A stretch of 64,000 nucleotides of DNA, taken from NCBI RefSeq assembly GCF_003334335.1, contig NZ_QOWQ01000006.1; one strand, written 5' to 3'. Under the pieces are notes generated by a model. That model searched no databases, had not been told where the DNA came from, and was given only the letters and a program-made list of their open reading frames with translations. This document shows positions 21,638 to 32,931 of the stretch, in pieces (position 1 is the stretch's first letter; each line of letters opens with the position of its first letter). Both the position numbers and the translations under genes were made by a program. The stretch comes from Escherichia coli. Lineage in GTDB: Bacteria; Pseudomonadota; Gammaproteobacteria; Enterobacterales; Enterobacteriaceae.

Positions 21638-23137
21638 ATGCTAAATTTATTTGTTGGCCTTGATATATACACAGGGCTTTTGTTATTGCTTGCTCTGGCA
21701 TTTGTGTTGTTCTACGAAGCAATCAATGGTTTTCATGACACGGCGAATGCGGTGGCAGCCGTTATTTATACTCGTGCCATGCAACCACAACTTGCTGTGG
21801 TGATGGCGGCATTTTTTAACTTTTTTGGCGTGTTATTGGGCGGACTTAGCGTTGCCTATGCCATTGTCCATATGTTGCCAACCGATTTGTTGCTGAATAT
21901 GGGGTCAACCCACGGCCTGGCGATGGTCTTTTCCATGCTGCTGGCGGCGATTATCTGGAACCTGGGAACGTGGTTCTTCGGTTTACCGGCCTCCAGTTCG
22001 CACACCTTGATTGGTGCGATTATCGGCATCGGTTTAACCAACGCGCTGTTAACCGGCTCATCGGTGATGGATGCGTTAAACCTGCGTGAAGTGACCAAAA
22101 TTTTCTCCTCGCTGATTGTTTCCCCTATCGTCGGCCTGGTCATTGCGGGAGGCCTGATATTCCTGCTGCGACGCTACTGGAGCGGGACGAAAAAGCGTGA
22201 CCGTATTCACCGCATTCCGGAAGATCGCAAAAAGAAAAAAGGCAAACGTAAACCGCCATTCTGGACGCGTATTGCGCTGATTGTTTCCGCTGCGGGCGTG
22301 GCGTTTTCGCACGGCGCGAACGACGGACAAAAAGGGATCGGCCTGGTAATGCTGGTACTGGTGGGGATTGCCCCTGCTGGCTTCGTCGTCAATATGAATG
22401 CGTCCGGCTATGAAATTACCCGTACCCGCGATGCCGTTACCAACTTCGAACACTACCTGCAACAGCATCCTGAACTGCCGCAGAAGTTGATTGCGATGGA
22501 ACCTCCATTGCCTGCAGCATCGACTGATGGCACGCAAGTAACAGAGTTTCACTGTCATCCGGCAAATACCTTTGATGCTATTGCGCGCGTTAAAACGATG
22601 CTGCCAGGCAATATGGAAAGTTACGAGCCGTTAAGCGTGAGTCAGCGCAGCCAGCTGCGCCGCATTATGCTGTGCATCTCTGATACCTCCGCGAAGCTAG
22701 CGAAACTGCCAGGCGTCAGTAAAGAAGACCAGAACCTGCTGAAAAAACTTCGCAGCGATATGTTAAGCACCATTGAGTACGCTCCGGTGTGGATCATCAT
22801 GGCGGTAGCACTGGCGCTCGGCATTGGCACCATGATTGGCTGGCGTCGTGTAGCGATGACCATCGGTGAGAAGATTGGTAAGCGCGGCATGACGTATGCG
22901 CAAGGCATGGCGGCACAAATGACGGCGGCAGTGTCTATCGGTCTTGCCAGTTATATTGGGATGCCCGTCTCCACAACACACGTCCTCTCGTCTGCAGTTG
23001 CAGGGACGATGGTGGTGGACGGCGGTGGGTTACAGCGTAAAACGGTAACCAGCATCCTGATGGCGTGGGTATTTACTTTACCGGCGGCAATTTTTCTTTC
23101 TGGTGGGCTGTACTGGATAGCATTGCAGTTGATTTAA
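21638..23137 (+). CDS. pitB: low-affinity inorganic phosphate transporter
   Basis: 499 aa; PiT family membrane protein with duplicated [12 protein letters not shown] motifs; AT-rich upstream region. Confidence 0.9.
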
Positions 23138-23146
23138 CCTTCCTGA

Positions 23147-23185
23147 AAATGCCCGGTCCTGGCGATCGGGCATTTCCATTTTTGA
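23147..23185. terminator. stem-loop between convergent pitB and yghT
   Basis: aaatgcccg-(loop)-cgggcattt followed by ccattttt. Confidence 0.5.
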
Positions 23186-23878
23186 CTAGTGATAACCACG
23201 CGCGGTCATAAAATCCGTAATCGCTTTTTCTGCATCAACCAACACCTGTTCCAGTGGCTGATTGGCATCGATATCAACCAGTTGTGCACCACCAAAGGTT
23301 AACTGTGGCGTTATGGCAATCTTCCTCGCCAGCGATTCCCGTTTATGGTCGGGTTTACGTGCACAGGCAACTTCAAGGTCAACATTGAGTTTGATGACCA
23401 GATCAGGCTTATGGCTCGCCATCCAGTGAAACGCTTTACGTTCCTGGCTTGCCAGCCATGAGACAAAACGACCACCTTCAACGTTAGGTGGGAACACCGT
23501 ACCATCGTAAGCGCCAGGAATTTGGTCCTGAGGATAACGGTCGGTTAGAACAATTAACCCGCGACGACGACAGGCAAGCATATGACGAAAGCGCAGTAAG
23601 CGACGGGCGACAAACGCTGTAATTACCAGCGCCGGAACTGGTCCAGGCAATTTTTTTGCTGTTTTCACCTGATTTCGTTCAATTGTTTTATGTAAGGATT
23701 TTCCCATCAACGGTAATTTTGTCACTGCACGACCGACATTTCCGGCCTGTTTTCCTAAATGAACTCTTTCGGCAGCACCATATTTTTCGACAACGGTAAT
23801 AAGATGTTCACACACCGTTGACTTGCCTGAACCATCGCTACCAATAACGGCAATTAATGGAGGTGTTATTGACTGCAT
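23186..23878 (-). CDS. yghT: P-loop NTPase, kinase-like (Walker A plus DRYP motif)
   Basis: 230 aa; [11 protein letters not shown]alker [10 protein letters not shown] motif; paralogous to yghS and yghR. Confidence 0.8.
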
Positions 23879-24051
23879 GAATATATCCTTTAATTTAAAT
23901 ATCCATTAAAAATATTTATTTGGTTAATATGTTTTTATGAAAGCGTAATTCAGGTCAATGTCACAATTAACCATTGTCACAATAAGGTTGAACGGATATT
24001 CTGAGCACGGACCACGTAATATTCAATACATTATTTACTGCCGGGTTTTTC

Positions 24052-24765
24052 GTGAATCAACGTAATATGTCAATAATTAATTCCACGCCAGTGCGTGTTA
24101 TTGCCATTGTAGGATGTGATGGTTCAGGTAAATCGACCCTCACGGCAAGCCTGGTAAATGAACTGGCAGCAAGAATGCCAACAGAACACATTTATCTCGG
24201 GCAATCGTCCGGGCGAATTGGCGAATGGATTTCACAGCTCCCTGTTATTGGCGCACCTTTTGGGCGTTATCTGCGAAGTAAAGCGGCACATGTGCACGAA
24301 AAGCCCTCAACACCGCCTGGCAATATTACTGCACTGGTTATCTATCTGCTTTCCTGCTGGCGGGCGTACAAGTTTCGCAAAATGTTGTGTAAAAGCCAGC
24401 AAGGCTTTCTGCTCATCACCGACCGCTACCCGCAGGTTGAAGTGCCGGGGTTTCGCTTTGATGGCCCGCAATTGGCAAAAACCACGGGCGGTAACGGTTG
24501 GATAAAAATGTTAAGGCAGCGCGAGCTGAAGCTGTACCAATGGATGGCATCTTATTTGCCCGTATTGTTGATTCGTCTTGGCATTGATGAACAAACCGCG
24601 TTTGCGCGTAAACCTGACCACCAACTGGCAGCGTTACAGGAAAAAATCGCCGTTACGCCGCAACTGACATTCAATGGCGCAAAGATCCTTGAACTGGATG
24701 GGCGACACCCCGCCGATGAAATTCTGCAAGCGTCACTACGCGCAATTCACGCCGCGCTTTCCTGA
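24052..24765 (+). CDS. yghS: P-loop NTPase, kinase-like
   Basis: 237 aa; VGCDGSGKSTL Walker A; ITDRYPQVE motif. Confidence 0.8.
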   Translation: MNQRNMSIINSTPVRVIAIVGCDGSGKSTLTASLVNELAARMPTEHIYLGQSSGRIGEWISQLPVIGAPFGRYLRSKAAHVHEKPSTPPGNITALVIYLLSCWRAYKFRKMLCKSQQGFLLITDRYPQVEVPGFRFDGPQLAKTTGGNGWIKMLRQRELKLYQWMASYLPVLLIRLGIDEQTAFARKPDHQLAALQEKIAVTPQLTFNGAKILELDGRHPADEILQASLRAIHAALS

Positions 24766-24796
24766 TCACCAAAATGGATAGGGGATGATTTAACGA

Positions 24797-25555
24797 ATGG
24801 ATGCACTACAAACTCAAACTGTTAATAGTACAACCGCGCCGCAGCCCAACTACATTCCGGGGCTGATTGCGGTGGTCGGGTGTGATGGCACCGGTAAATC
24901 CACACTGACCACCGACCTGGTGAAATCGCTGCAACAACACTGGCAAACCGAGCGGCGCTATCTGGGGCTGCTCTCCGGCGAAGACGGCGACAAAATCAAA
25001 CGATTGCCGTTGGTTGGCGTCTGGCTGGAACGGCGACTGGCGGCCAAATCCTCGAAAACCCAAAGCATGAAAACCAAATCTCCGGCGCTATGGGCGGCGG
25101 TGATTATGTACTGCTTCTCGCTGCGAAGAATGGCGAATCTACGCAAGGTTCAGCGACTGGCGCAAAGTGGCGTTCTGGTGGTCAGCGATCGCTTCCCGCA
25201 GGCTGAAATTTCGGGCTTTTATTATGATGGACCGGGGATTGGCGTCGAACGTGCGACCGGGAAAATCAGCATGTTTCTGGCGCAGCGCGAACGGCGTTTA
25301 TACCAACAAATGGCGCAATATCGCCCGGAATTAATTATTCGCCTGGGCATTGATATTGAGACTGCCATCTCCCGCAAGCCTGACCATGACTATGCCGAGC
25401 TGCAGGACAAAATCGGTGTCATGTCGAAGATTGGCTATAACGGCACAAAAATTCTTGAGATTGATTCCAGAGCGCCCTACAGCGAAGTGCTGGAACAGGC
25501 ACAGAAGGCGGTTTCTCTGGTTGCCATCGTTTCTGACCGCCGAAGTTTAACTTAA
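24797..25555 (+). CDS. yghR: P-loop NTPase, kinase-like
   Basis: 252 aa; VGCDGTGKSTL Walker A; VSDRFPQAE motif. Confidence 0.8.
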   Translation: MDALQTQTVNSTTAPQPNYIPGLIAVVGCDGTGKSTLTTDLVKSLQQHWQTERRYLGLLSGEDGDKIKRLPLVGVWLERRLAAKSSKTQSMKTKSPALWAAVIMYCFSLRRMANLRKVQRLAQSGVLVVSDRFPQAEISGFYYDGPGIGVERATGKISMFLAQRERRLYQQMAQYRPELIIRLGIDIETAISRKPDHDYAELQDKIGVMSKIGYNGTKILEIDSRAPYSEVLEQAQKAVSLVAIVSDRRSLT

Positions 25556-25600
25556 GGCTGGCGGGATACTTTTTACTATCAACGATAAGGTCAGGCTGAA

Positions 25601-26950
25601 TTGGCGGGTTTTAACATCAAACATTGGTTTGCAGATGGCGCGTTTCGCACCATTATTCGCAATAGCGCCTGGTTAGGCTCCAGTAATGTCGTGAGCGCCT
25701 TGCTGGGTCTGTTGGCGCTCTCGTGTGCCGGTAAAGGGATGACGCCCGCCATGTTTGGCGTACTGGTGATTGTGCAATCGTACGCCAAGTCGATCAGCGA
25801 TTTTATTAAGTTTCAGACATGGCAACTGGTGGTTCAGTACGGAACACCAGCATTAACCAACAATAATCCGCAGCAATTCCGCAATGTCGTCTCATTTTCC
25901 TTCTCGCTGGATATCGTCAGCGGCGCGGTGGCGATTGTCGGTGGCATTGCCTTACTGCCATTCCTTTCCCATTCATTAGGTCTGGATGACCAAAGTTTTT
26001 GGCTGGCAGCGCTCTATTGCACGCTCATTCCTTCAATGGCTTCCTCCACGCCGACCGGCATTCTGCGTGCGGTAGATCGCTTCGATTTAATTGCTGTACA
26101 GCAGGCGACGAAACCTTTTCTGCGCGCAGCGGGGAGCGTCGTAGCCTGGTATTTTGACTTTGGTTTTGCGGGTTTTGTTATTGCCTGGTACGTGTCGAAT
26201 CTGGTTGGCGGCACCATGTACTGGTGGTTTGCCGCGCGCGAATTACGCCGCCGAAATATCCATAACGCCTTCAAATTGAATCTGTTTGAGTCTGCCCGAT
26301 ACATTAAAGGCGCGTGGAGTTTTGTCTGGTCAACCAACATTGCCCACTCCATCTGGTCGGCGCGTAACTCGTGCAGCACAGTGTTGGTGGGGATCGTGTT
26401 AGGACCCGCTGCCGCCGGGTTATTTAAAATCGCCATGACATTCTTCGACGCCGCCGGAACGCCAGCGGGTTTGCTGGGTAAAAGTTTTTACCCAGAGGTG
26501 ATGCGTTTAGATCCGCGCACCACCAGACCGTGGTTGTTAGGTGTGAAGTCCGGTTTACTGGCGGGCGGAATCGGTATTCTGGTGGCGCTCGCGGTGTTGA
26601 TCGTCGGCAAGCCGCTCATTTCGCTGGTGTTTGGCGTTAAGTATCTCGAAGCGTATGACCTGATTCAGGTGATGCTGGGCGCAATTGTGATTTCGATGCT
26701 GGGCTTCCCTCAGGAGTCATTGCTATTGATGGCGGGAAAACAGCGCGCTTTTCTCGTGGCGCAAACCATCGCCTCAATCGGCTACATCGTATTGCTGTTC
26801 ATGTTCTGTCATCTGTTTGGTGTGCTGGGAGCAGCGTTTGCTTACTTCGGTGGGCAATGTCTGGACGTGGCGCTCTCGTTAATTCCAACCTTAAAGGCAT
26901 TTTTTCAGCGCCATTCCTTGCTTTATAACGCAGCCGGAGAGAAATCCTGA
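25601..26950 (+). CDS. yghQ: MOP-superfamily (Wzx/MurJ-like) polysaccharide/lipid flippase-type membrane protein
   Basis: 449-aa polytopic membrane ORF; TTG start as listed, true start uncertain; stop overlaps next start (TGATG). Confidence 0.75.
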   Translation: MAGFNIKHWFADGAFRTIIRNSAWLGSSNVVSALLGLLALSCAGKGMTPAMFGVLVIVQSYAKSISDFIKFQTWQLVVQYGTPALTNNNPQQFRNVVSFSFSLDIVSGAVAIVGGIALLPFLSHSLGLDDQSFWLAALYCTLIPSMASSTPTGILRAVDRFDLIAVQQATKPFLRAAGSVVAWYFDFGFAGFVIAWYVSNLVGGTMYWWFAARELRRRNIHNAFKLNLFESARYIKGAWSFVWSTNIAHSIWSARNSCSTVLVGIVLGPAAAGLFKIAMTFFDAAGTPAGLLGKSFYPEVMRLDPRTTRPWLLGVKSGLLAGGIGILVALAVLIVGKPLISLVFGVKYLEAYDLIQVMLGAIVISMLGFPQESLLLMAGKQRAFLVAQTIASIGYIVLLFMFCHLFGVLGAAFAYFGGQCLDVALSLIPTLKAFFQRHSLLYNAAGEKS

Positions 26951-27774
26951 TGATGAGAAAATATTTCCCGCTTGAGGCGAGCGAGCGTCTATTTGTTGCG
27001 ATTGAAGAAGATGATGTCGTTGATGCACAGGTTAGTTTGCCGCCGACTATTGCACTAAGTTGTACCACCGAAATCATTCATGATAATTACGCGTTATGCC
27101 TGCAATTCTGGCTCAATGGCGTTGATCGTCAGGAGTTACTGCGTTTAGTTCGCAAACAAGCCAAAGGCGATGAGCTGACTGCTGATGAGCGCAAACAATT
27201 TAAATACATGCGAGCGCGCTACAAGCACCTGCGTTTTGCGCAACGGCTGTATTTAAAGAAGCATCAGGCCGGATTTTTATTCGGCAAAACGACCGTTTTT
27301 CTGGGGCGTTTTCAGGACGGCTTTCGTAACGGTAAGAAAAATATTGTGTCGTATTACGGCAACCTGTTACGGATTTATTTAAGCTCTCCGGTCTGGTCGT
27401 TGGTGAACTATTCATTACGCCATAGCCAGTTAGAAAGCGTAAGCAGTTTTATTGCCTATCGGCAAAAGCAAATGCATACCCTGAAAGAGATTATTGCCAA
27501 ACCGCGACTAACCGGTAGGGAATTTCATGATGTGCGAAAAATCATCAGCCAGCAGGTTTCTTATTACGACACCTTAAGATCGCTTGATCCTGAAAATAAA
27601 GAGGCGTTACAGATATCCCGCTTCCTCGCCGCCATTAATGGCCTGATGGGAGATAAACACGACGACATGGTGGCGGATGATATGGAAAACCGCCAGTCGT
27701 ATGATGCACCGGTGGCGCTGGATAGCGATATTCGTCAGCGCTTAGAGCTGCTGATTTCGCGTTTTCCGCTATAG
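26950..27774 (+). CDS. hypothetical protein, no recognisable domain
   Basis: 274-aa ORF translationally coupled to yghQ; basic/charged, no transmembrane segment or nucleotide-binding motif seen. Confidence 0.55.
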   Translation: MMRKYFPLEASERLFVAIEEDDVVDAQVSLPPTIALSCTTEIIHDNYALCLQFWLNGVDRQELLRLVRKQAKGDELTADERKQFKYMRARYKHLRFAQRLYLKKHQAGFLFGKTTVFLGRFQDGFRNGKKNIVSYYGNLLRIYLSSPVWSLVNYSLRHSQLESVSSFIAYRQKQMHTLKEIIAKPRLTGREFHDVRKIISQQVSYYDTLRSLDPENKEALQISRFLAAINGLMGDKHDDMVADDMENRQSYDAPVALDSDIRQRLELLISRFPL

Positions 27775-27782
27775 CCGGAGCA

Positions 27783-28346
27783 ATGATGTCATCTCGTTTG
27801 ATTATTGCGTTGATTATCATGCTCTTAGCCCCGGGTGTGCAGGCACACAATTTCGTCACTGGCAAAACGGTTACCCCTGTTTATATCCAGGAAGGCGGCG
27901 AGCTGCTTCTGAATAGCGACGACGAAATTCACTACCAAAAGTGGAACAGCACACAATTAGCGGGAAAAGTCCGCATTATTCAGTATATCGCCGGGCGTAA
28001 GTCGGCGAAGAAAAAGAACTCACTGTTAATTAAAGCGGTTGAAGCGGCAAACTTTCCGCAGGATCGTTTTCAGCCCACCACCATTGTGAACACCGATGAT
28101 GCCATCTTTGGTACTGGCTATTTTGTTGTTGGCAAAATCGAAAAAAATAAACGCCGCTATCCGTGGGCGCAATTCGTTATTGACGGCAATGGACAGGGAC
28201 GCGTTGCCTGGCGCTTGCCGGAGCAGAGTTCAACCATTCTGGTGCTGAATAAAGCCGGGCAAATTCAGTGGGCAAAGGACGGCAGCCTGACGCCGGAAGA
28301 GGTAGATCATGTCATTGCGTTGGCGCAGAAACTGATCAATGAATAA
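27783..28346 (+). CDS. YtfJ-family periplasmic protein (signal peptide)
   Basis: 187 aa; N-terminal signal peptide MMSSRLIIALIIMLLAPGVQA; motifs TTIVNTDDAI and WAKDGSLTPEEV resemble E. coli YtfJ as I recall it. Confidence 0.55.
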   Translation: MMSSRLIIALIIMLLAPGVQAHNFVTGKTVTPVYIQEGGELLLNSDDEIHYQKWNSTQLAGKVRIIQYIAGRKSAKKKNSLLIKAVEAANFPQDRFQPTTIVNTDDAIFGTGYFVVGKIEKNKRRYPWAQFVIDGNGQGRVAWRLPEQSSTILVLNKAGQIQWAKDGSLTPEEVDHVIALAQKLINE

Positions 28347-28376
28347 AAAACTCAAAGGATTGAGGGCGTTAGTGAG

Positions 28377-29447
28377 ATGAAGCTGGTTGAACACTACATC
28401 ATGCGTGGTACGCGCCGTCTGGTGCTGATTATCGTCGGTTTTCTGATCTTTATTTTCGCCAGCTACTCCGCACAGCGTTATCTGACCGAAGCGGCAAATG
28501 GGACATTAGCTCTTGATGTTGTGCTGGATATCGTTTTCTACAAAGTACTGATTGCACTGGAGATGTTGTTACCTGTTGGTCTGTATGTGTCAGTTGGCGT
28601 GACGCTAGGGCAGATGTATACCGACTCGGAAATTACCGCTATCTCTGCGGCGGGGGGCAGTCCGGGACGCTTGTACAAAGCCGTTCTTTATCTGGCGATA
28701 CCGCTAAGTATTTTTGTCACCCTTCTGTCGATGTATGGTCGTCCGTGGGCTTATGCGCAGATTTATCAACTGGAGCAGCAGTCGCAGTCGGAGCTGGATG
28801 TTCGCCAGTTGCGGGCAAAGAAATTTAACACTAACGATAACGGACGAATGATCCTTTCGCAGACGGTTGATCAGGATAATAATCGCCTGACTGACGCGCT
28901 GATTTATACTTCTACTGCCAATCGAACCCGCATTTTCCGCGCCCGTTCGGTTGATGTGGTTGACCCATCACCCGAGAAACCGACCGTTATGTTGCACAAC
29001 GGCACTGCCTATCTTATCGATCATCAGGGGCGTGATGACAACGAACAGATCTACCGTAATCTGCAATTACATCTGAATCCGCTGGATCAAAGCCCTAACG
29101 TCAAACGCAAAGCGAAATCGGTCACGGAGCTGGCGCGCTCCGTCTTTCCAGCCGATCATGCCGAACTGCAATGGCGGCAAAGCCGTGGCCTGACCGCATT
29201 GTTGATGGCGCTGCTGGCCATTTCATTAAGTCGGGTAAAACCGCGGCAAGGGCGATTTTCAACGTTATTGCCACTGACGTTGCTGTTTATTGCCATTTTT
29301 TATGGCGGTGACGTCTGCCGTACGCTGGTGGCTAACGGCGCGATTCCCCTCATTCCTGGTTTGTGGTTAGTACCCGGACTCATGCTAATGGGCCTGCTGA
29401 TGCTGGTCGCACGCGACTTCTCTTTGCTGCAGAAATTTTCCCGATGA
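28377..29447 (+). CDS. LptF/LptG-family (YjgP/YjgQ) permease
   Basis: 356 aa; N-terminal transmembrane helices, large periplasmic insert, C-terminal transmembrane helices, as in LptF/LptG. Confidence 0.7.
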   Translation: MKLVEHYIMRGTRRLVLIIVGFLIFIFASYSAQRYLTEAANGTLALDVVLDIVFYKVLIALEMLLPVGLYVSVGVTLGQMYTDSEITAISAAGGSPGRLYKAVLYLAIPLSIFVTLLSMYGRPWAYAQIYQLEQQSQSELDVRQLRAKKFNTNDNGRMILSQTVDQDNNRLTDALIYTSTANRTRIFRARSVDVVDPSPEKPTVMLHNGTAYLIDHQGRDDNEQIYRNLQLHLNPLDQSPNVKRKAKSVTELARSVFPADHAELQWRQSRGLTALLMALLAISLSRVKPRQGRFSTLLPLTLLFIAIFYGGDVCRTLVANGAIPLIPGLWLVPGLMLMGLLMLVARDFSLLQKFSR

Positions 29448-30523
29448 ATGTTTTCAGCCGCTATTTAATCCGTCATCTCTTTCTCGGTTTTGCCGCCGCC
29501 GCAGGGCTATTGCTGCCGCTTTTTACCACCTTCAACCTGATTAACGAACTGGATGATGTCAGCCCGGGCGGTTATCGCTGGACTCAGGCGGTGCTGGTGG
29601 TGCTAATGACCTTACCGCGCACACTGGTCGAACTTTCGCCATTTATCGCCTTATTGGGAGGGATTGTCGGCCTGGGGCAGTTATCGAAAAACAGTGAGCT
29701 TACCGCCATTCGCAGCATGGGGTTTTCTATCTTCCGTATTGCACTGGTGGCGCTGGTTGCAGGGATATTGTGGACTGTTTCGTTAGGCGCGATAGATGAG
29801 TGGGTAGCGTCGCCATTACAGCAACAGGCGTTGCAAATCAAATCGACCGCCACCGCGTTGGGGGAGGACGATGACATTACCGGCAATATGCTGTGGGCCA
29901 GGCGTGGTAATGAATTTGTGACGGTGAAATCGCTGAACGAGCAGGGCCAGCCGGTGGGCGTGGAGATTTTTCATTATCGCGACGATCTCTCGCTCGAATC
30001 CTACATTTATGCACGCAGTGCCACCATTGAAGACGACAAAACGTGGATCCTGCATGGTGTGAATCATAAAAAATGGCTGAATGGCAAAGAAACGCTGGAA
30101 ACATTAGATAATCTTGCCTGGCAATCGGCCTTCACCAGTATGGATCTTGAAGAGTTATCAATGCCGGGCAATACTTTTTCTGTCCGTCAGCTTAATCATT
30201 ACATCCATTATTTGCAGGAAACCGGGCAACCCAGCAGCGAATACCGCCTTGCACTGTGGGAAAAACTGGGGCAACCCATCCTGACCCTGGCGATGATTTT
30301 GCTGGCTGTGCCGTTTACCTTTAGCGCCCCGCGCTCGCCAGGGATGGGTAGCCGTCTCGCTGTAGGTGTCATCGTTGGCTTACTCACCTGGATCAGCTAT
30401 CAAATCATGGTCAATCTGGGATTGCTATTTGCGTTGAGCGCACCTGTTACCGCGCTCGGTTTACCGATAGCGTTTGTGCTGGTGGCGTTGAGCCTGGTGT
30501 ATTGGTATGACAGACAACATTAA
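29444..30523 (+). CDS. LptF/LptG-family (YjgP/YjgQ) permease, second paralog
   Basis: ORF 29363..30523; start placed at MNVFSRYLIRHLF (ATG 29444 overlaps upstream stop, ATGA); same topology as previous gene. Confidence 0.7.
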   Translation: MNVFSRYLIRHLFLGFAAAAGLLLPLFTTFNLINELDDVSPGGYRWTQAVLVVLMTLPRTLVELSPFIALLGGIVGLGQLSKNSELTAIRSMGFSIFRIALVALVAGILWTVSLGAIDEWVASPLQQQALQIKSTATALGEDDDITGNMLWARRGNEFVTVKSLNEQGQPVGVEIFHYRDDLSLESYIYARSATIEDDKTWILHGVNHKKWLNGKETLETLDNLAWQSAFTSMDLEELSMPGNTFSVRQLNHYIHYLQETGQPSSEYRLALWEKLGQPILTLAMILLAVPFTFSAPRSPGMGSRLAVGVIVGLLTWISYQIMVNLGLLFALSAPVTALGLPIAFVLVALSLVYWYDRQH

Positions 30524-30524
30524 A

Positions 30525-30551
30525 CCCGCCGTGGCGCAACACCACGGCGGG
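30525..30551. terminator. GC-rich hairpin between convergent operons (probable bidirectional terminator)
   Basis: cccgccgtgg-cgcaacac-ccacggcggg lies between the LptG-like stop (30523) and the reconstructed aminotransferase stop (30558). Confidence 0.5.
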
Positions 30552-30557
30552 CTCACA

Positions 30558-31737
30558 TTACTGCTTCAGAGTAGCAAATGCCTGAATGATGGCATCGATT
30601 TGCTCACGACTGTGAGCAGCGTTTACGCTACAGCGCAGCAGCGTGATGCCTGCAGGCGCGGCAGGTGGCAGGTGGCAGGATAAGATTCACATAAACGCCC
30701 AGCGAAATAAGCTCGCGCCAGATGCGTAAACCGTCCTCTTTCGAACCGATTATTACCGGCACTACCGGGCTAATATGTGAACTTAACTCATAACCCAGTT
30801 TTTGCAGACCGTCATACAGATGGTTGGCATTATCCATCAGCTTTTGCCGCAGCTCTGGTTGTGTGGCAATAGTTCTTAACGACGAGCGCACGGTCGCAAT
30901 GCAGGACGGAGAAGGAGAGGCGGTAAAAATATACGGGCGGCTGCCGTAGCGCAGCACTTCCATCGCTTCCGAACCGACAGCAAAACCGCCAATCGAGGCC
31001 AGACTTTTACTGAAGGTGCCAACGATAATATCCACATCATCTTCAACGCCGACAGCTTCAGCCAGTCCGCGCCCCGTTGCGCCTAACACGCCAAACGAAT
31101 GCGCTTCATCGACAATCAAATAACCACCGAGACGACGTTTGATATCAACAATTTCCGCTAACGGCGCAACGTCACCGAGCATGCTGTAGATACCCTCAAC
31201 GATGATAATCGCCTCTTTCGCCCGTTCACCGAGGCGAACCATGCGCCGTTCCAGATCTTTAGCATCGTTATGGCGGAAACGAATAATTTCCGCGCCACCG
31301 AGAGAACAGGCGTCATAAATACTGGCGTGGCTGTCGGCATCCAGTAACACCACGGCGTTATGGTCGGCAAGTGCGCTGATGACGCCTAAATTAGCGGTAT
31401 AACCGGTTGAAAAAACGATAGCGGTAGGGCGATTGAAAAACTCGGCAATCTCTTTCTCTAACGCCAGGTGCGGCGCATAACTGCCGTTTGCCATACGAGA
31501 ACCGGTGGTGCCGGTACCTTGGGCCGCTAACGCGGCCTGACCTTCGCTGATGGCATCATGATTAAAGGTTAAACCGAGATAATTATTGGTCCCGGCCAGA
31601 ATCACTTTTTTATTGCCGATCCGGCCTTCGGTGGCGGAATACACTTCATCAATACAGGTGCCAAACGGTGTTAACCCGTTGTCACTAAATTGCAGTCGCT
31701 CGCCAGCAAGGCGCGCATATTTATCGTATAGCCCCAT
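30558..31737 (-). CDS. alpha-oxoamine synthase (serine palmitoyltransferase/BioF/KBL family), frameshifted near the 3' end; longest intact frame is 30628..31737
   Basis: PLP-lysine motif GTFSKSLASIGGF; listed ORF ends ...ILPPATCRACRHHAAAL; a 7-bp tandem duplication at about 30661-30674 shifts frame; removing one copy gives ...PPAAPAGITLLRCSVNAAHSREQIDAIIQAFATLKQ; ATG overlaps ACP stop (TAATG). Confidence 0.75.
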
Positions 31738-31985
31738 TATTTATTCTCCAGCCATGGAAGTAGAGTTTCCATTAATTGCGCAGGGGTTTTGACATCCAGC
31801 AGAATATTAATAGGAATGGAAATATCGAATCTGTCTTCCAGCATCATTAAGAGATCCATCACTTTGATCGACTCCAGGCCAAGATCGTTGACGAGATCGC
31901 TGTCGGGCTTAATTTCCACACCGTTTTCGACCAAATCCTGTAAACAGGAAAGGATGTAATCCATTACTATTTCACGATTTACCAT
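31737..31985 (-). CDS. acyl carrier protein
   Basis: 82-aa acidic ORF with phosphopantetheine attachment motif DLGLESIK. Confidence 0.8.
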   Translation of the reverse strand: MVNREIVMDYILSCLQDLVENGVEIKPDSDLVNDLGLESIKVMDLLMMLEDRFDISIPINILLDVKTPAQLMETLLPWLENK

Positions 31986-32016
31986 AGAAACGTTAACACA
32001 CCTTTAAACAAGACAA

Positions 32017-32931
32017 TCAAAATAGCCCGTTGCGTAATGCGTGTTCCAGGCTAATCCCGGGAAACCAATTAATATCTTCAGAAATACGGTTATTACTTGC
32101 CGACCAGTCGGCGTGGGTTAATTCACGAATTTTCGAGCGGGTCAGCATAGGTTCTTTACCTGCCAGGCGACTCAACGCGGTACTGATATCCGCAAGGCCG
32201 GTGAGTACCGGCAGAGGAATGCCAACCATTCGCACGGAACCGCAACGGGCGTCGGCGGCAAGTTGCTGTACGCGTTGCCAGTCATAGCCGCCGGCGACGC
32301 CATCGCATAATTCATAGGTTTGCGTCTGTATAGTTTCGGCGCTTAACCACTGACCCACTGCTTGCGCGAAATCGGTGACGTGCAGAAAAGAGAGCTGTGT
32401 ATCTGGCGCACCAAGTCGTGGCAGCAGGCCGCGCAGCATCCAGTCAAACAGCGGTTTTAACTCTTTATCGCCGGGACCATACACGGCTGTCGGGCGAAAA
32501 ACGCCCAGCGTAATTTCGTCCGCCATTGCTGCCAGTCGTTGCTCGGCGACGTATTTGGATTTTGCATACCAGGAGAGCTCGGGATGGCGCGCCGCCAGCG
32601 AAGAGATAAACAGAAAACGTTGGCAAAAGCCGCTCTCTTTTGCTGCTTGCATCAGGCGCAGGCTGCCGTCAACGTTACAGCGGGTGAAAATCTCTTCTTT
32701 GTGCCCGCGCACTTGCCCGGCGCAATGGACCACTACGCTGGCTCCGGCAACCAGCTCGCTAAGTGAATGAGTATCTTCCAGCGAACCGCGCACCCAGGTG
32801 AGATTATCATTGACGTGAGCGCGGGCAGTACGCGTCAATGCGCGAACGTGAAAGCCGCGGGCGAGCAGGTTATCGATAATATATTTACCGATAAACCCGG
32901 TAGCGCCCGTCACCGCGACAGTTTGATTCAT
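32017..32931 (-). CDS. NAD(P)-dependent epimerase/dehydratase-family oxidoreductase (candidate keto-reductase)
   Basis: 304 aa; Rossmann motif VTGATGFIG; catalytic YAKSK (YxxxK); ATG overlaps upstream stop. Confidence 0.75.
   Translation of the reverse strand: MNQTVAVTGATGFIGKYIIDNLLARGFHVRALTRTARAHVNDNLTWVRGSLEDTHSLSELVAGASVVVHCAGQVRGHKEEIFTRCNVDGSLRLMQAAKESGFCQRFLFISSLAARHPELSWYAKSKYVAEQRLAAMADEITLGVFRPTAVYGPGDKELKPLFDWMLRGLLPRLGAPDTQLSFLHVTDFAQAVGQWLSAETIQTQTYELCDGVAGGYDWQRVQQLAADARCGSVRMVGIPLPVLTGLADISTALSRLAGKEPMLTRSKIRELTHADWSASNNRISEDINWFPGISLEHALRNGLF

Follow-up and report, generated by a model that had tools for sequence, protein, structure and literature searches.

A second LptF/LptG-like permease pair in the accessory sphingolipid gene cluster of Escherichia coli

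A stretch of 64,000 nucleotides from Escherichia coli (RefSeq assembly GCF_003334335.1, contig NZ_QOWQ01000006.1; the window in what follows) carries two adjacent genes, here called lptF2 and lptG2, at positions 28377 to 30523. We confirmed that they encode one LptF-like and one LptG-like protein at exactly these coordinates. Our data make it probable that LptF2 and LptG2 are the transmembrane halves of a second LptB2FG-type lipid extractor, belonging to an accessory ceramide/sphingolipid cluster of E. coli. An initial annotation, made from the sequence alone, had taken the pair for a dedicated extractor of an amphiphile other than lipopolysaccharide (LPS) that might borrow the ATPase LptB. 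This interpretation gains support from published data on Caulobacter, from the linkage of the pair to spt and cerS genes, from the lack of a cognate ATPase in 81 related loci, from the retention of the coupling-helix glutamates and from an altered lipid A-binding patch.

Results

Identity and fold of the pair

The two genes lie on the same strand, and the stop codon of lptF2 and the start codon of lptG2 overlap in the sequence ATGA at 29444-29447. The longest open reading frame (ORF) of lptG2 starts from a GTG at 29363; the RefSeq start and the onset of homology both fall on the ATG at 29444. Both proteins matched PF03739, the YjgP/YjgQ profile, end to end, LptF2 with an E value of 8e-54 (residues 7-345; positions 2-352 of the 353 of the model) and LptG2 with 1e-69 (model positions 1-352 of 353). 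The profile search proposed with the initial annotation thus bore out its description of two translationally coupled paralogs of LptF/LptG architecture. The NCBIfam equivalogs TIGR04407 (LptF) and TIGR04408 (LptG), with curated cut-offs of 230 and 240 bits, respectively, told the two apart: LptF2 reached 318 bits with TIGR04407 and only 65 with TIGR04408, LptG2 308 bits with TIGR04408 and only 87 with TIGR04407. As both scores exceed the cut-offs, RefSeq (PGAP) names the proteins 'LPS export ABC transporter permease LptF/LptG' (ABC, ATP-binding cassette).

Solved LptF and LptG chains aligned end to end with LptF2 and LptG2, respectively (LptF2 residues 7-343 on 5x5y_F), and the hydropathy profiles of the two proteins ran parallel to those of LptF and LptG. 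For LptG2 an AlphaFold2 model was built from 45 members of its clade (mean pLDDT 84.8). It predicted helices at residues 3-139 and 247-358 on either side of a beta domain of six strands (150-227), and it superposed on the LptG chains 6mjp_G and 6mit_G (Vibrio, Enterobacter) with TM-scores of 0.81-0.83, beta-jellyroll included. The architecture of the family, with three transmembrane helices, a periplasmic beta-jellyroll and three further transmembrane helices, was therefore recognized in LptG2 from the model and in LptF2 from alignment and hydropathy.

An extra copy among sphingolipid genes

The initial annotation had assumed that the canonical lptFG genes lie elsewhere and that the present pair is an additional copy, and neither of the findings that would contradict this, a pair that is the only one in the genome or a failure to match the family profile, was obtained. 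E. coli C (NZ_CP029371.1, also an example of the RefSeq naming) has an identical pair between a YtfJ-family gene and spt, and in addition the canonical lptF-lptG beside pepA-holC-valS. In the 5426 complete RefSeq genomes of E. coli the canonical pair was present without exception and the second pair in 4132 cases; 4106 of the 5426 hold the latter at a coverage of at least 80%. The whole 2147-base region of the pair is 100% identical to many E. coli chromosomes. The two pairs are only distantly similar, with 29% identity between LptF2 and E. coli LptF (268 amino acids aligned) and 28% between LptG2 and LptG (350 amino acids aligned). Canonical lptFG is a universal pair next to pepA; the second pair is accessory and sits between yghQ and spt.

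In the window, the plus-strand run of yghS, yghR, full-length yghQ, a gene for a 274-aa protein, ytfJ2, lptF2 and lptG2 is convergent with a minus-strand run of aasR, cerR, acpR and spt, and yghO follows beyond it on the plus strand (Table 1). The genes spt, acpR, cerR, aasR and yghO are the bacterial dihydroceramide set, and the locus is a sphingolipid cluster. Hence the lipid-synthesis surroundings noticed in the initial annotation are those of a bacterial ceramide cluster, and the amphiphile that it had left unnamed is a ceramide-type sphingolipid as putative substrate. In BL21(DE3), Spt, AcpR and AasR are biochemically active, AasR acylates AcpR, and ECD_02853, the counterpart of acpR by position, was shown to be an acyl carrier protein (ACP); the same work assigned yghO as the aca/cerS orthologue, an N-acyltransferase, and the epimerase-like gene (cerR) as the reductase (PMC9386255). 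The yghO product had no match in Pfam, NCBIfam or PADLOC and is 60% identical to that of the gene at the cerS position in Azotobacter.

The distribution of this arrangement was followed in two ways. An exhaustive, profile-free search of 1.84 billion representatives returned enterobacterial orthologues at an identity of at least 55%, and then a long series from 38 down to 26%. A scan of one genome per species, queried with an alignment of seven sequences, gave 80 loci, to which the metagenome contig L007 was added, and the resulting 81 loci were searched by tblastn with the E. coli cluster proteins. Their LptF2 relatives are 31-98% identical to LptF2, all 81 are followed by an LptG2-like gene, and in most loci homologues of spt, acpR, cerR, aasR and/or yghO lie at most 10 kb away. 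Such loci came from Citrobacter, Hafnia, Serratia, Erwinia, Pantoea, Pseudomonas and Azotobacter, and from metagenome-assembled genomes (MAGs) assigned to Nitrosomonas, Nitrosospira, Methylothermaceae, Desulfobacteraceae and Acidobacteriota. Near the pair, pepA, lptC and lptA were found in none of the 81. Two independent metagenome or MAG contigs, at 37% and 30% identity, showed a like arrangement, and a representative at 26% stood in the canonical pepA-holC context; the contigs of P0127 and P0129, the nearest non-enterobacterial relatives, and of P0212 were too short for gene context. Since the synteny extends down to about 30% identity and the canonical context appears at 26%, these proteins make up a separate, sphingolipid-linked clade, nearer to E. 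coli LptF2 than is any of the canonical LptF proteins sampled.

Table 1. Features of the locus, in window coordinates
Feature	Coordinates	Strand	Product or nature	Remarks
yghT	23186..23878	-	P-loop protein, not an ABC ATPase	no ABC signature
yghS	24052..24765	+	P-loop protein, not an ABC ATPase	no ABC signature
yghR	24797..25555	+	P-loop protein, not an ABC ATPase	Walker A only; dTMP-kinase match 32 bits
yghQ	25601..26950	+	candidate flippase of the MOP superfamily	full-length, 449 aa; weak MOP flippase matches
274-aa gene	26950..27774	+	protein with predicted CHAD-like all-helical fold	no family match
ytfJ2	27783..28346	+	periplasmic YtfJ-family paralogue	directly upstream of lptF2; TIGR01626 212 bits
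lptF2	28377..29447	+	LptF-like permease, second copy	356 aa
lptG2	29444..30523	+	LptG-like permease	359 aa; ATG start
hairpin	30521..30555	.	GC-rich hairpin, 16 pairs	between convergent lptG2 and spt; terminator-like scan
spt	30565..31737	-	serine palmitoyltransferase	NF047599 555 bits; frameshifted, ORF 30628-31737
acpR	31737..31985	-	specialised acyl carrier protein	ACP annotation; just upstream of spt
cerR/epi	32017..32931	-	NAD-dependent epimerase/dehydratase family; putative ketosphinganine/ceramide reductase	
aasR	32928..34658	-	fatty acyl-AMP ligase / acyl-AcpR synthetase	NF006624 878 bits; RefSeq start ~34616, longest ORF from 34658
yghO	34948..36168	+	putative bacterial ceramide synthase (N-acyltransferase)	RefSeq start ~35026

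Loss, decay and selection

In K-12 MG1655 (L004, 3129043-3132408) an IS5 element (insH9) stands between yghO and a yghQ truncated to 355 amino acids. It has replaced everything from the 3' part of yghQ through aasR (about 26700-35000 of the window), and the 274-aa gene, ytfJ2, lptF2, lptG2, spt, acpR, cerR and aasR are missing. Owing to this IS5-associated deletion the pair lies outside standard K-12 knowledge.

In the window itself spt is damaged. When aligned to E. coli C it shows a tandem duplication of 7 bp at about 30660-30666, with GGCAGGT three times instead of twice. Residues 1-357 of Spt are identical to those of E. coli C and are then followed by TCRACRHHAAAL and a stop instead of APAGITLLRCSVNAAHSREQIDAIIQAFATLKQ and a stop, which means that the frameshift after codon 357 removes the conserved C-terminal 'LLRCS...' tail. 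The lost segment presumably holds the conserved arginine of the 'LLRCS' motif, which we take to be important in the serine palmitoyltransferase of Sphingomonas. Of the 4085 complete E. coli genomes with a match to this stretch, not one carries the duplication; either a private loss-of-function allele or an error of sequencing could account for it. If it is real, sphingoid base is probably not produced by this strain, which would leave the transporter idle.

Other disturbances touch the pair in other strains. In PSS-04 and PSJ-32-1 ISKpn26 insertions split the pair region, apparently within lptG2. A product of 450 amino acids (P0016, 34 contigs) joins PF03739 to the PitB-type PF01384 and would fit a deletion from pitB to lptF2, and Shigella boydii has a truncated form of 238 amino acids. 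Such truncated and fused forms and insertions are signs of repeated decay in some lineages. Divergence at the locus is also high for a comparison within one species: over this region the window shares only 95-99% identity with most complete genomes, and lptF2, lptG2 and yghQ showed a synonymous divergence of 0.24-0.49 from SCPM-O-B-8794 (labelled E. coli; L037), which might reflect a divergent lineage or recombination.

Is the pair then, in E. coli at large or in this strain, no more than what is left of a horizontally acquired cluster, idle or in decay and transporting nothing at present? The private spt frameshift with its loss of the 'LLRCS' segment, the IS5-associated loss of the block in K-12, the ISKpn26 insertions and the truncated or fused database forms, such as PF03739+PF01384, would all agree with this. 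Both genes, however, are under strong purifying selection. The ratio of nonsynonymous to synonymous substitution rates (dN/dS) was 0.04-0.09 for lptF2/lptG2 against the Escherichia relatives and Pseudocitrobacter, 0.05-0.09 for lptF2 alone, and 0.03-0.12 when the neighbours were included along with the pair (Escherichia to Pseudocitrobacter). Together with the two intact reading frames of the window and the retention of the pair at high coverage by 4106 of 5426 genomes, these values make a remnant an unlikely explanation.

Source of energy

The initial annotation had reported no ABC ATPase at the locus and, by eye, no ABC signature features in the yghRST products, and a systematic scan agreed with this. 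None of the stop-to-stop ORFs of the window combined a Walker A motif with an ABC signature. Walker A alone was present in YghT, YghS and YghR and in one uncharacterised frame at 55103-56701, and YghR/S/T matched only P-loop models of the dTMP-kinase type, weakly and far under the cut-off. No ABC match in the 81 loci exceeds 35% identity to E. coli LptB. The matches in Pseudomonas and Azotobacter lie, by their coordinates, at the nucleotide-binding end of a fused exporter; the ORF itself, read in Azotobacter only, has 586 amino acids and is MsbA-like. A cognate ATPase accompanies the pair nowhere in the clade, not just in E. coli.

In canonical LptFG the coupling-helix glutamates E84 of LptF and E88 of LptG are those that we take to contact the groove of LptB. 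A serine-glutamate pair of the coupling helix was invariant in a four-way alignment of E. coli LptF, LptG, LptF2 and LptG2 (S84-E85 in LptF2), and the equivalents of LptF E84 and LptG E88 are kept in 80/80 LptF2 and 80/81 LptG2 sequences. This conservation is in keeping with docking on an ATPase of the LptB type.

A partner other than LptB, either another ABC ATPase elsewhere in the genome or the neighbouring YghR/S/T, or else passive conduction of lipid without ATP, seems improbable to us. Such an arrangement could draw on the fact that direct evidence of LptB binding comes from Caulobacter only, and on the presence of YghR/S/T homologues with the pair in most loci of Enterobacterales and some of Pseudomonas. 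However, many loci hold the pair without YghR/S/T, these proteins have no ABC signature and match models of the dTMP-kinase type only, the coupling-helix glutamates are all but invariant, and the Caulobacter pair does bind LptB (10.64898/2026.04.12.717747).

YghR, YghS and YghT may still be unrecognised members of the pathway. The genes of these three paralogues, all retained by K-12, adjoin the sphingolipid cluster in the majority of enterobacterial loci, and homologues of 36-46% identity occur in several Pseudomonas loci. We also considered whether they are homologues of the ceramide kinase CpgB and rejected this: CpgB of Caulobacter has an LCB5/diacylglycerol-kinase domain with a GGDG motif (PMC10331486), whereas YghR/S/T are Walker A proteins with a weak likeness to dTMP kinases.

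Lipid A-binding residues

The basic residues that hold LPS in the canonical cavity are listed in Table 2 together with their equivalents in the second pair; the N-terminal BLASTP alignment of LptG2 with LptG contains no gaps. In the canonical protein, LptG K34E and R136E are lethal (PMC6744409). The full basic set for lipid A and inner core expected of an LPS exporter was not found, with only K62 and R136 of LptG and R33 and K317 of LptF remaining basic. On the LptG side of the cavity entrance, part of the positive charge is thus lost and even reversed, which favours a substrate different from bis-phosphorylated, Kdo-bearing lipid A.

Table 2. LPS-contacting residues of canonical LptFG (Tang et al. 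2019, PMC6744409) and their equivalents in the second pair
Canonical residue	LPS group contacted	E. coli LptG2	LptF2/LptG2 clade
LptG K34	one phosphate	N	N or D
LptG K62	one phosphate		R in 70/81; other residues in some distant members
LptG R133	one phosphate	L	L, I or F
LptG R136	one phosphate		K or R; H in 2
LptF R33	one phosphate		R in 71/80; K, D, V, N in some distant members
LptG K40	other phosphate	D	D or E
LptF K317	other phosphate		R or K in 72/80; Q in 8
LptG K41	core	D	D

That the pair is a redundant or alternative exporter of LPS or an LPS variant, as its RefSeq name says and as scores above both NCBIfam equivalog cut-offs and the basic residues still in place might suggest, is very unlikely in view of its identity of only 28-29% to the canonical pair, its neighbourhood (spt/cerS genes near it in most of the 81 loci, pepA in none), the N or D at K34 and the acidic residues at K40 and K41 of LptG, and its absence from K-12 and 24% of genomes, in contrast to the universal canonical pair. 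Gene context and altered lipid A-binding residues together indicate that the 'LPS export' name is probably an over-assignment for the second pair.

Neighbouring genes

Three genes, yghQ, the 274-aa gene and ytfJ2 (25601-28346), join lptF2G2 only in Enterobacterales among the 81 loci. YghQ is annotated in E. coli C as 'lipopolysaccharide biosynthesis protein'. The 274-aa protein gave no match in Pfam, NCBIfam or PADLOC and no link to a defence system. YtfJ2 has an N-terminal hydrophobic segment, and its identity to the housekeeping YtfJ (E. coli C) is 54%, a degree that marks it as a much younger duplicate than LptF2/G2. The hairpin between lptG2 and spt is likely a shared terminator of the two convergent runs. 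A promoter scan of 23000-36500 gave 12 sites against 15.2 in shuffled controls, and we assert no promoter.

Discussion

Both the concept of a second LptFG-type extractor for sphingolipids and the existence of E. coli homologues are already in the literature, the former as a proposal of 2024 and both in a preprint of 2026 that includes experiments. CC_1156 and CC_1155 of the Caulobacter sphingolipid cluster were named LptF2 and LptG2 by Olea-Ozuna et al. (2024, PMC11324152), who proposed that the outer membrane receives phosphosphingolipids through these proteins together with LptC2 and a flippase. Uchendu, Isom and Klein (bioRxiv, 13 April 2026, 10.64898/2026.04.12.717747) reported that three Caulobacter genes, lptF2 and lptG2 among them, cannot be deleted unless spt or cpgB is missing, and that LptF2 and LptG2 co-purify and both bind the single LptB in pull-down experiments. 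According to the same preprint, lptF2/lptG2 occur in many sphingolipid loci of alpha- and gammaproteobacteria, among them that of E. coli UTI89 (its Figure 2B). In the literature that we searched, only this preprint touches on the E. coli pair, as a figure panel. The frameshifted spt and intact lptF2G2 of the window are compatible with the conditional-deletion pattern of Caulobacter, of which they are no test.

In the mechanism that we favour, AasR, AcpR, Spt, CerR and YghO would assemble the sphingolipid at the cytoplasmic face, and it would be flipped across the inner membrane, probably by the MOP-type flippase YghQ. From the outer leaflet the lipid would enter the cavity of the LptF2-LptG2 heterodimer and be expelled toward the periplasmic beta-jellyroll domains, the energy coming from the cell's single LptB ATPase dimer docked on the conserved coupling helices. 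It would then continue to the outer membrane, possibly along the ordinary LptC/A/DE bridge. We infer the sharing of LptB, the direction of transport and the downstream route from Caulobacter.

Several points weigh against this interpretation. Binding to LptB and conditional lethality of LptF2/G2 are data from Caulobacter only. At 24-25% identity to the Azotobacter and P. luteola pairs, the Caulobacter pair may not be orthologous, and convergent recruitment may underlie the analogy. The window contains no homologues of the CPG head-group genes (cpgA, cpgB, cpgC, CC_1152, CC_1153) or of the Azotobacter MsbA-like exporter, and without a CPG head group the substrate must probably differ from the Caulobacter one. 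The literature searched contains no documentation of native sphingolipid production by E. coli. The frameshift in spt may mean that the pathway is broken in the present strain. Finally, the locus is dispensable, being absent from 24% of genomes including K-12 and disrupted by insertion sequences in some strains.

Taking all observations together, a wider picture can be drawn, which we put forward tentatively and with less than even confidence. About three quarters of E. coli strains, K-12 not among them, would make a ceramide-based lipid chemically distinct from the phosphoglycerate sphingolipids of Caulobacter. It would be exported by a second complex, LptB2-F2G2, with a reversed-charge patch on the first transmembrane helix (TM1) of LptG; this complex and LPS would be competitors for the single LptB, and perhaps for the bridge of LptC/A/DE as well. 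Recruitment of the beta- and gammaproteobacterial F2G2 clade to sphingolipid loci may have been separate from that of the alphaproteobacterial pair, and in Enterobacterales the pathway would have the CHAD-like protein, YtfJ2 and YghR/S/T as accessories.

LPS transport of E. coli is the reference system for the export of lipids to the outer membrane and a current antibiotic target. Most natural E. coli have a second LptFG-type extractor, and the sharing of LptB between two substrates is open to study in the best-equipped model organism. Our finding confirms existing work rather than opening a field. What it adds to the literature are the frequencies in the population, the structure of the K-12 deletion, clade-wide synteny without an ATPase, the reversed-charge TM1 patch of LptG next to retained coupling glutamates, purifying selection and the enterobacterial accessory genes.

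Comparison with known systems

With canonical LptB2FG(C) (yjgP/yjgQ; 6MHU, 6MIT, 6S8H) the pair shares six transmembrane helices per protein, the periplasmic beta-jellyroll, the coupling-helix glutamate and the translationally coupled order of F followed by G. It differs in being accessory and at another locus, in its 28-29% identity, in the N, D and D that replace the TM1 lysines of LptG and in the leucine at R133.

Closer relatives are found in Azotobacter vinelandii (Avin_44330/44340) and Pseudomonas luteola, which belong to the clade of the E. coli pair at 52-54% identity, and in MAGs of Nitrosomonas, which belong to it at 31-34%; all of these adjoin cerS/spt genes. In Azotobacter and P. 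luteola the loci also include head-group genes of the CPG type (PMC11324152). Instead of the trio of MOP flippase, CHAD-like protein and YtfJ2, the Azotobacter and Pseudomonas loci have an ABC match, in Azotobacter the fused MsbA-like exporter.

The Caulobacter crescentus pair, CCNA_01214/CCNA_01213 (= CC_1156/CC_1155), is more distant in sequence. It is 24-25% identical to the Azotobacter and P. luteola pairs (E 1e-6 to 1e-13; PMC11324152, S2 table), and by this published BLAST it is no closer than canonical LptFG. Unlike Caulobacter, E. coli has no LptC2, and in place of the CPG genes it has the MOP flippase YghQ, the CHAD-like protein, YtfJ2 and YghR/S/T. The arrangement is nevertheless the same in both: an adjacent second PF03739 pair inside a cluster of spt, cerS, cerR, acpR and aasR, no LptB gene at the locus, canonical lptFG elsewhere and a candidate flippase nearby. 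As an extra PF03739 copy among spt, acpR, cerR, aasR and cerS, with no paralogue of LptB at the locus, the E. coli pair has these features of the Caulobacter type.

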